Below are positions 38,850 through 40,169 of a stretch of DNA of 45,162 bases, piece after piece; position 1 is the stretch's first letter; every line of letters begins with the position of its first letter. A program made the position numbers and the translations under genes. The stretch lies in IMG/VR virus record IMGVR_UViG_2684623059_000002, one strand, 5' to 3'. The notes below the pieces were generated by a model. It saw only the letters and a list, made by a program, of their open reading frames with translations, was not told the DNA's origin and ran no database searches. The stretch comes from a virus. Lineage: Duplodnaviria > Heunggongvirae > Uroviricota > Caudoviricetes.

Positions 38850-40169
38850 GTGAGTATGGCAGTACAGATTTCAGGTGTACTGAAAGATGGTGCAGGTAAG
38901 CCGATACAAAACTGTACCATTCAGCTAAAGGCCAGGCGCAACAGCACCACGGTGGTGGTGAACACAGTGGCCTCAGAAAACCCGGATGAAGCCGGGCGTT
39001 ACACAATGGACGTTGAGTACGGTCAGTACAGCGTCATTCTGTTGGTGGAGGGATTCCCGCCGTCACATGCCGGGACCATCACAGTGTATGAAGATTCTCA
39101 GCCGGGTACGCTGAATGATTTTCTCGGTGCCATGACGGAGGATGATGTCCGGCCGGAGGCACTGCGTCGTTTTGAACAGATGGTGGAAGAGGCAGCGCGT
39201 CACGCTGAGGAGGCGAAGAAGAATGCCGGAGAGGCAGAGACGTCAGCGAGGAATGCGGGTATATCAGCCGGCCAGGCGGAAAAGAGTGCAGTAAATGCTG
39301 AGACTTCTGCAGGGGATGCATCGGAGTCAGCCCGGCAGGCGACGGAAAGTGCAGCCTCAGCAAAGCAGTCAGAGGATGCGTCCTCGTCCTCGGCTTCTGC
39401 GGCCGCTCAAAAAGCCAGTGAGTCATCACAAAGTGCAGCAGAAGCTGAATTGTCAAGAAAGACGGCAGAAAGTGCAGCCGATAATGCATCCAGGGATGCA
39501 ACGACCGCAGCAGAAAAAGCCCGGGAGTCAGCAGAAAGCGCACAGTCAGCGGAACAAAGCAGGATAGCGGCGGAAGAGGCCGTAAACCGAATCCCCACCG
39601 TGGTGGGACCTCCCGGGCCAAAGGGGGAACAGGGGCCCGCTGGCCCTCAGGGGCCGAAGGGTGATAAGGGAGAGCGTGGTGACACCGGCCCTGTCGGGGC
39701 AACCGGCGAACGGGGACCGGGAGGAGATACAGGTCCGGCAGGCCCGCAGGGGCCGAAAGGCGACAGGGGGGAACGGGGAGAGACCGGTCTGACGGGAAGT
39801 ACAGGTCCACAGGGGCCAAAGGGAGATACCGGTGCAGCAGGCCCGGCAGGCCCACAGGGACCGAAAGGAGAAACAGGAGCGGCAGGTCCGGTGGGGGCTA
39901 CCGGACCTCAGGGGCCGAAGGGAGACCCGGGCGAGACACAAATCCGTTTTCGTCTGGGGCCGATGAGCATTATTGAGACAAACAGCTATGGCTGGTTCCC
40001 GGATACAGATGGTGCGCTCATCACCGGACTGACCTTTCTTGACCCCAAAGATGCCACACAGGTTCAGGGGATGTTTCAGCATTTGCAGGTCAGATTTGGT
40101 GACGGGCCGTGGCAGGATGTTAAGGGGCTGGATGAAGTGGGCAGTGATACAGGCAGAACAGGAGAATGA
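38850..40169 (+). CDS. stf: Side tail fibre protein (Stf-like N-terminus) with collagen-like Gly-X-Y repeats
   Basis: N-terminus [38 protein letters not shown]... matches lambda Stf; about 35 consecutive Gly-X-Y triplets ([19 protein letters not shown]...). Confidence 0.85.

Follow-up and report, generated by a model that had tools for sequence, protein, structure and literature searches.

The side tail fibre locus

The window (the whole stretch of DNA analysed, 45,162 nt) carries a side tail fibre gene directly downstream of the gene for the central tail fibre. The fibre gene was delimited from its ORF, Pfam matches and homologues, and the encoded protein has the architecture of EPclA (EHEC prophage collagen-like protein A). 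The following features were assigned:

35383..38796, plus strand: gpJ, central tail fibre/tip attachment protein, 1137 aa (Pfam), directly upstream of the fibre gene
38856..40169, plus strand: side tail fibre gene, 437 aa plus stop codon
38856..39254, plus strand: PfN, lambda Stf-type N-terminal (collar/attachment) domain, aa 1-133 (PF08400, E 2.9e-69)
39255..39605, plus strand: PCoil, Ala/Ser/Glu-rich low-complexity segment, aa 134-250 (117 aa; composition, autocorrelation)
39606..39938, plus strand: collagen tract of 37 Gly-X-Y triplets, aa 251-361 (111 aa; translation, and PF01391 with E 4.7e-17)
39939..40166, plus strand: C-terminal 76 aa, including PfC with an RLGP motif (PF06820), putative cell-binding end
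40171..40440, plus strand: 89-aa ORF, a free-standing PfC domain (PF06820, E 3.6e-33)

The start of the fibre gene was placed at the ATG at 38856, which is preceded by a GGAG 8 nt 5' of it. Homologous fibre proteins begin with MAV and make no use of the in-frame GTG found at 38850. The original prediction had described a side tail fibre with a lambda Stf-like N-terminus, and this was borne out by several lines of evidence. In addition to the PF08400 match, lambda orf-401 (Stf) was 88% identical to the fibre over aa 1-117, and a PDB sequence search aligned aa 1-94 with the side-fibre collar chain of Ur-lambda (PDB 9E7M/9MGH; E 7.5e-52). PHROGs also places the protein among tail fibre families. 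The PCoil segment that follows is composed of 30% Ala and 21% Ser with only 7% LIVMF, and the autocorrelation of its Ala residues showed peaks at lags 7 and 14, i.e., a heptad character.

About 35 Gly-X-Y triplets had been predicted between 39590 and 39950; the count of 37, within 39606..39938, is essentially the same. The tract runs through all 37 triplets without interruption, has Pro in the X position of 18 triplets and a 22% share of charged residues, and contains the peptide motif GPQGPKG[D/E] five times. Its GC content is 70% vs 51% for the window. When all six frames of the 45,162-nt window were searched, it was the only run of at least six Gly-X-Y triplets, and in 2000 shuffles of the fibre protein the longest such run did not exceed six triplets.

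Within the C-terminal region, Pfam located PF06820 (Phage_fiber_C) to aa 363-426 (39942..40133) with an E value of 3.8e-34. Three Pfam domains (PF08400, PF01391 and PF06820) are consequently found in a single frame of the fibre ORF. A PDB sequence search returned no solved structure of PfC, the matches being collagens and the lambda collar, and an AlphaFold2 model of the PfC region built on a 17-row alignment had low scores (mean pLDDT 66, pTM 0.48). Two minus-strand ORFs that run across the tract, 39079..39855 (258 aa) and 39546..40331 (261 aa), were considered as coding sequences and dismissed because it is the plus frame that has the three Pfam domains; they are most likely by-products of a GC-rich, stop-poor periodic sequence.

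Genomic context of the fibre gene

The gap between gpJ and the fibre gene (38797..38855) is only 59 nt, so the window has no lom gene. In lambda, and in two of the related prophage loci (L084 and L086), lom sits between J and the fibre gene; it is absent from the closest relative, the Escherichia albertii prophage L082 (CP099871.1). On the downstream side, the 89-aa ORF starts 1 nt past the fibre stop codon. It shares 34% identity (E 1e-11) with the fibre's own PfC, corresponds to phrog_576 ('tail fiber protein') and takes the position that tfa has in lambda. The same ORF follows the fibre gene in all six related loci that were read (L080-L084 and L086). This free-standing PfC ORF, which may act as a chaperone, a cap or a co-trimerising subunit, is not discussed by Ghosh et al. 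(2012; PMC3368898).

Type III effector cargo follows the tail genes directly, on the plus strand at 40650..44908: an NleG-family protein of 196 aa, a 790-aa protein with pentapeptide repeats and a SopA-like HECT-type E3 ligase (NleL-like), and NleC (Peptidase_M85, 330 aa) with an HEIIH motif. The order of gpJ, fibre, 89-aa ORF, NleG and 790-aa E3 is the same in L082, which was the nearest relative found.

Upstream, the plus-strand late region 12399..15854 is ordered as in Stx phages, with a Q antiterminator gene (12399..13094), four phage tRNA genes just past it (13305..13614; Met-CAT, Lys-TTT, Thr-TGT and Gly-TCC) and then a 638-aa DUF1737/SASA esterase (NanS-p-like). Because the gap between the tRNA genes and the esterase is only about 320 nt, there is no room for stx, and the region is a stx-less relative of the late regions of Stx phages. 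The Gly codon GGA accounts for 13 of 38 Gly codons in the collagen tract vs 10 of 105 in gpJ; the phage tRNA-Gly(UCC) may aid translation of the tract, although this is a correlation only. At the left end of the window, a minus-strand ORF of 823 aa (59..2530) has a C-terminal Rv2179c-like 3'-5' exoribonuclease domain (PF16473, E 7.6e-67) and gave no Pfam match in its N-terminal 640 aa. Considering gpJ upstream, Q with the tRNA genes, and the matches to long-tailed Stx1/Stx2c phages, the fibre is encoded in the tail module of a lambdoid prophage.

Relationship to EPclA and other known fibres

Judged by its domains and homologues, the ORF is an ordinary EPclA-type side tail fibre, as each defining feature of EPclA that could be tested was found in it. 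EPclA, represented by ECs2717 and Z0982, has the domain order PfN-PCoil-Col-PfC (Ghosh et al., 2012; PMC3368898), which is also the order in the window fibre. The copies tabulated for O157 Sakai and EDL933 are of 437 aa with a PCoil of 116 and a Col of 111 residues (PMC3368898), lengths that equal those of the window fibre (437 aa, PCoil 116-117, Col 111 or 37 triplets). The PCoil of EPclA has been described as a low-complexity, Ala/Ser-rich segment of heptad character with almost no Leu, Ile or Val (PMC3368898). The gene in Sakai likewise lies after gpJ and is followed by the 89-aa ORF. At the DNA level, the fibre gene is about 94% identical to those of VT1-Sakai (Sp15), phage 2851, phage cdtI and many long-tailed Stx1a/Stx2c phages. 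The window therefore holds an allele distinct from the O157 copies (94% identity) and closest to those of E. albertii prophages, with no difference in kind; the prophage itself differs from those with the O157 copies in its NleG, SopA-like E3 and NleC cargo and in having no lom.

Recombinant EPclA cloned from O157 Sakai DNA was characterized as a dumbbell-shaped trimer by CD, AUC, SEC-MALLS and EM (PMC3368898). Its Col region gave a collagen CD signature with a Tm of 42 C, its PCoil a trimeric coiled coil with a Tm of about 50-52 C, and its PfC acted as a trimerisation module that renucleates the triple helix (PMC3368898).

The lambda side fibre (Stf; orf-401/orf-314) has in common with the window fibre the N-terminal 117 aa, an Ala/Ser-rich coiled coil next to it and the place in the tail operon, but has no collagen tract. 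Past aa 117, no similarity to orf-401 was found except for low-complexity matches. The lambda distal rod (Pf2 repeats), gp37-like receptor-binding tip and Tfa are replaced in the window by the collagen helix, the 76-aa PfC knob and the free PfC paralogue: Pfam gave no match to PF03406 (Pf2 repeat) in the fibre, and directly downstream no Tfa-type chaperone gene was found, that place being occupied by the 89-aa PF06820 ORF. For Ur-lambda, residues 1-91 of gpStf form collar domains in contact with gpV and gpM, and the tail bears four projecting trimeric fibres, which are the first to contact the cell (PMC12617516).

A second group of relatives, the EPclD-type fibres of Shigella and E. coli, has the same PfN, PCoil and first ~24 triplets as the window fibre (82-90% identity, with aligned regions covering 55-82% of the query) and tracts of 9, 27, 28, 33, 34, 36 or 38 triplets. 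Their C-terminal module is not PfC but PF13884 ('peptidase S74' intramolecular chaperone; 134 aa). These PF13884-type proteins resemble the window fibre until two-thirds of the way through the tract, beyond which they diverge, and this places a module boundary in or near the collagen tract. It was also the one pattern observed that is relevant to host range.

A collagen-like protein encoded beside the type III effector genes for NleG, the SopA/NleL-like E3 and NleC could also be read as a collagen-mimic adhesin or virulence factor that acts on the animal host, like streptococcal Scl, rather than as a part of the phage; one database entry (P0089) is indeed named 'collagen-like surface-anchored protein SclE'. 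That name, however, sits on a Shigella/E. coli-type sequence and looks mislabelled. The protein has neither a signal peptide nor an anchor, its N-terminus is the lambda Stf collar domain, its gene comes right after gpJ in the tail operon, and its PHROGs assignments are to tail fibre families. We regard an adhesin as scarcely credible.

Tract length among homologues

Whether the number of triplets is constant among homologues bears directly on the original prediction of a hotspot for fibre length variation. Among the best 120 homologues, tracts of 4, 5, 8, 9, 14-16, 19-22, 25-28 and 32-38 triplets were observed, represented by 58 unique tract sequences. The range of 4-38 triplets, together with deletion ends at the tract's own short direct repeats (described below), supports such a hotspot, and invariance of the tract, which would have spoken against one, was not seen. 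In full-length PfC-type proteins, the commonest lengths were 19 triplets (24 distinct sequences) and 37 triplets (12). All of the indels in the tract preserve both the reading frame and the Gly-X-Y register. Length variation is on record for EPclA, for which Col lengths of 63, 78, 81, 111, 114 and 144 aa have been published (Ghosh et al., 2012; PMC3368898).

The PCoil segment (39255..39605) also showed clean internal deletions in comparison with three homologues, of 28, 41 and 63 aa (P0007, P0012 and P0018), with repeats of ESA/AESAA on either side. The deletion of 41 aa departs from the rule given by Ghosh et al. (PMC3368898), as 41 is not divisible by seven.

As the gene is GC-rich and multi-copy in many genomes, and as many homologues come from short draft contigs, the length variants might be artefacts of sequencing or assembly in which a repetitive multi-copy gene was collapsed. 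This is very improbable. The repeats are of 11-17 nt, far below read length; variants occur in the closed chromosomes CP099871.1 and CP045690.1, and the finished Sakai genome has forms of 407 as well as 437 aa. Moreover, short forms are common to clusters of tens to hundreds of sequences, and all variants are in frame.

Direct repeats at the deletion junctions

The DNA of the tract had been called repetitive, and this holds in part. Dispersed direct repeats of 11-17 nt are present, but the repetition is imperfect: Tandem Repeats Finder reported a single array of 45 nt x 2 at 80%, and since this array is weak, the tract was treated as a set of dispersed in-register repeats. The longest exact in-register direct repeats are one 17-nt pair and four 11-nt pairs, all on the plus strand:

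39645..39661 and 39906..39922, plus strand: 17-nt repeat CCTCAGGGGCCGAAGGG, offset 261; ends of the 261-nt deletion in L084
39747..39757, also at 39648 and 39909-39919, plus strand: 11-nt repeat CAGGGGCCGAA, offsets 162 (39747/39909) and 99 (39648/39747); the 39747/39909 pair bounds the 162-nt deletion in L082
39735..39745 and 39843-39853, plus strand: 11-nt repeat CCGGCAGGCCC, offset 108; within a 16/17 imperfect repeat
39615..39625 and 39813-39823, plus strand: 11-nt repeat GGGCCAAAGGG, offset 198; ends of the 198-nt deletion in L083

The copy of CAGGGGCCGAA at 39909-39919 lies inside the right-hand 17-nt repeat (39906..39922).

In L082 (E. albertii CP099871.1; 19 triplets), the fibre gene is 100% identical to that of the window over all 1152 aligned nt; what is missing is precisely the 162 nt that separate two copies of CAGGGGCCGAA. 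Three further natural alleles were resolved in the same way. L083 (15 triplets) has lost 198 nt at the GGGCCAAAGGG pair and L084 (8 triplets) 261 nt at the 17-nt CCTCAGGGGCCGAAGGG pair, while in L080 (25 triplets) 108 nt are missing and the junction falls in the 16/17 imperfect repeat that contains CCGGCAGGCCC. The tract allows 3070 distinct deletion products that keep the register; a junction homology of at least 11 nt occurs in only 5, and three of these five exist as natural alleles.

At the protein level, the 58 tract sequences yielded 23 single-deletion classes relative to the window. The junctions of about 14 of the 23 are located in shared peptide motifs of at least 4 aa, vs 2.2% of all possible products. 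Equal lengths were found to result from different deletions: 19 triplets by two junctions, 26 by three and 15 by three. The same length reached via different junctions indicates that the deletion events are recurrent. For the 27-, the 16- and some of the 4-triplet alleles, mapping onto the window sequence revealed no shared junction motif; their parents probably differed from the window, as exemplified by the GPAGPAGPA run in L021, and these alleles were left without an assigned junction.

The repeat content of the tract was compared with that of 1000 synonymous-codon shuffles. The longest repeat was 17 nt vs 14.2 +/- 3.0 nt in the shuffles, and repeats of at least 11 nt numbered five vs 3.2 +/- 1.7. 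The shuffles thus gave evidence of neither enrichment nor purging of DNA repeats in the tract, the content being what the peptide predicts; accordingly, the instability appears as a by-product of the motif structure, with no sign that it was built in. A simple-sequence contingency locus, i.e., a phase-variable tandem repeat, was rejected, given that the repeats are dispersed, exact over 17 nt at most and not above the content of the synonymous-codon shuffles.

Exchange of fibre alleles between prophages

A match to the fibre covering at least 80% of the query was present in 693 of 5426 complete E. coli genomes, and as many as 16 places matched in a single genome. The best 15-kb match in these genomes was 94.8% identical, and the best fibre match, in strain MEI003, 99.2%. 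The E. albertii genome CP099871.1 was used as a proxy in which exchange between prophages could be compared. Its second prophage, L086, differs from L082 in having lom between J and the fibre gene and a different NleG cargo. Over the fibre gene and the 89-aa ORF, the two prophages differ at 3 of 1423 nt and have the identical 162-nt deletion, and downstream of this unit their DNA could not be aligned. The occurrence of one allele within different flanks indicates that alleles move, or are homogenised, between prophages. Identity between the window and L082 is likewise mosaic (37797..41040): the final 1 kb of J is 96.5% identical, but the fibre gene, apart from the deletion, and the 600 nt that follow it are 100% identical. 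This step in identity suggests that a recombination boundary lies close to the J/fibre junction. The prediction that the tract would promote exchange with other prophages of the same genome is therefore upheld in one respect, as the same deleted allele is seen in two CP099871.1 prophages. In the other respect it is not: the unit moved is the whole gene, shared together with the next ORF, and nothing marks the collagen tract as the crossover point.

These data raise the question of whether the length differences arose mainly through replacement of whole alleles or segments by homologous recombination, the tract being a passenger and not a hotspot. The shared deleted allele with different flanks, the mosaic identity, the 7-9 near-identical EPclA copies in O157 genomes (PMC3368898) and the multiple matching places per genome speak for replacement. 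Replacement explains the spread of alleles but not their origin, since L082 differs from the window solely by a deletion that ends in an 11-nt repeat. The 23 junction classes, mostly at internal repeats, and the convergence on equal lengths by different deletions require many independent intragenic events, and a single ancient deletion per length class is contradicted for the 19-, 26- and 15-triplet classes. We think replacement as the main source of the length differences somewhat unlikely.

Probable recurrent shortening of a collagen stalk

Taken together, we favor the view that this is an EPclA-type lambdoid side fibre with a stalk that has been shortened recurrently by deletion between internal repeats, and we assign it a probability of roughly 0.85. 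The roles of the individual domains are transferred from relatives. Three chains would assemble into one fibre, with PfN attached to the tail tube/tip as a collar, on the model of Ur-lambda, and the Ala/Ser-rich heptad segment predicted to form a trimeric coiled coil. The 37 triplets would form a stiff collagen triple helix; with a rise of 0.286 nm for each of its 111 residues, this rod would be about 32 nm long. This rod would keep the small trimeric PfC knob away from the tail, and PfC would nucleate folding of the helix; binding of PfC to cells is in the literature a suggestion only.

The recurrence of GPQGPKG[D/E] and a few other motifs in the peptide gives rise to the in-register direct repeats of 11-17 nt in the tract. 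In-frame deletions between these repeats arise repeatedly and generate alleles of 4-36 triplets, which would correspond to rods of about 3 to 31 nm. RecA normally needs longer homology than 11-17 nt. Given such short homologies, slipped mispairing (replication slippage) or single-strand annealing is the likely route in preference to RecA-dependent crossing-over, in keeping with what is generally known of short-repeat deletion, although slippage and unequal crossing-over are not separable by sequence alone. The direction of change, from 37 to fewer triplets, is the one favored by parsimony. Once formed, whole alleles would spread among co-resident prophages by ordinary homologous recombination, and conversion from a second prophage copy could in principle lengthen a 19-triplet allele again.

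Recombination at collagen-like repeats has precedents in unrelated viruses. The antireceptor of Streptococcus thermophilus phages (Duplessis and Moineau, 2001; Desiere et al., 1998) is, as cited in PMC5601072 and PMC7242381, a tail host-recognition protein that also carries collagen-like repeats; these repeats were proposed to be recombination hotspots, spontaneous deletions are on record, and the VR2 region is held to set the host range. The proteins and hosts are unrelated, and the repeats separate distinct domains there, in contrast to the single long stalk tract of the window fibre. In ORF8 of the Guarani/Sputnik virophage, again an unrelated protein and from a virophage of eukaryotes, a spontaneous in-frame deletion of 81 nt occurred between 27-nt collagen-like repeats. 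That deletion was demonstrated by experiment to widen the host range.

With such precedents (the virophage deletion and VR2), and in line with the host-range variation of the original prediction, tract length could itself be the selected variable, the rod matching the thickness of the O-antigen or capsule of the host and thereby altering host range or adsorption rate. The preservation of frame and register in all indels would then mean that only functional products survive, and the prevalence of certain lengths (19 and 37 triplets) would be in line with selection. However, frame-keeping follows automatically from in-register repeats, many prophages of this kind are defective so that the variation may be neutral, no codon-level sign of selection on the repeat content was seen, and changes in length affect the stalk and not the C-terminal knob. 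We consider selection on length unlikely. Still more speculative, and in our judgment improbable, is the idea that the stalk is a built-in length switch in which deletions between the five GPQGPKG-coding repeats take place at measurable frequency in every burst. Were it true, every lysate would hold discrete fibre lengths (37, 26, 25, 19, 15 and 8 triplets), some particles would reach receptors through surface layers of differing thickness, and temperate phages carrying Shiga toxin and effector genes would possess a bet-hedging device.

Recurrent deletion between the tract's own repeats adds to a picture the main elements of which are already known: the fibre class, the collagen helix and tract lengths that differ by multiples of three residues were all published in 2012 (PMC3368898). 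What is added here is a modest refinement, namely the placement of the junctions at 11-17-nt in-register repeats, an allele pair with zero substitutions, and the evidence that equal lengths have arisen independently several times. The tract does not represent a new kind of system; it can serve as a handy natural marker and offers a case in which repeat-mediated deletion can be tested. Fibres of this class belong to lambdoid prophages by which genes for Shiga toxin and type III effectors are transferred among E. coli, Shigella and E. albertii, so that the factors controlling adsorption of these phages bear on the spread of virulence genes.
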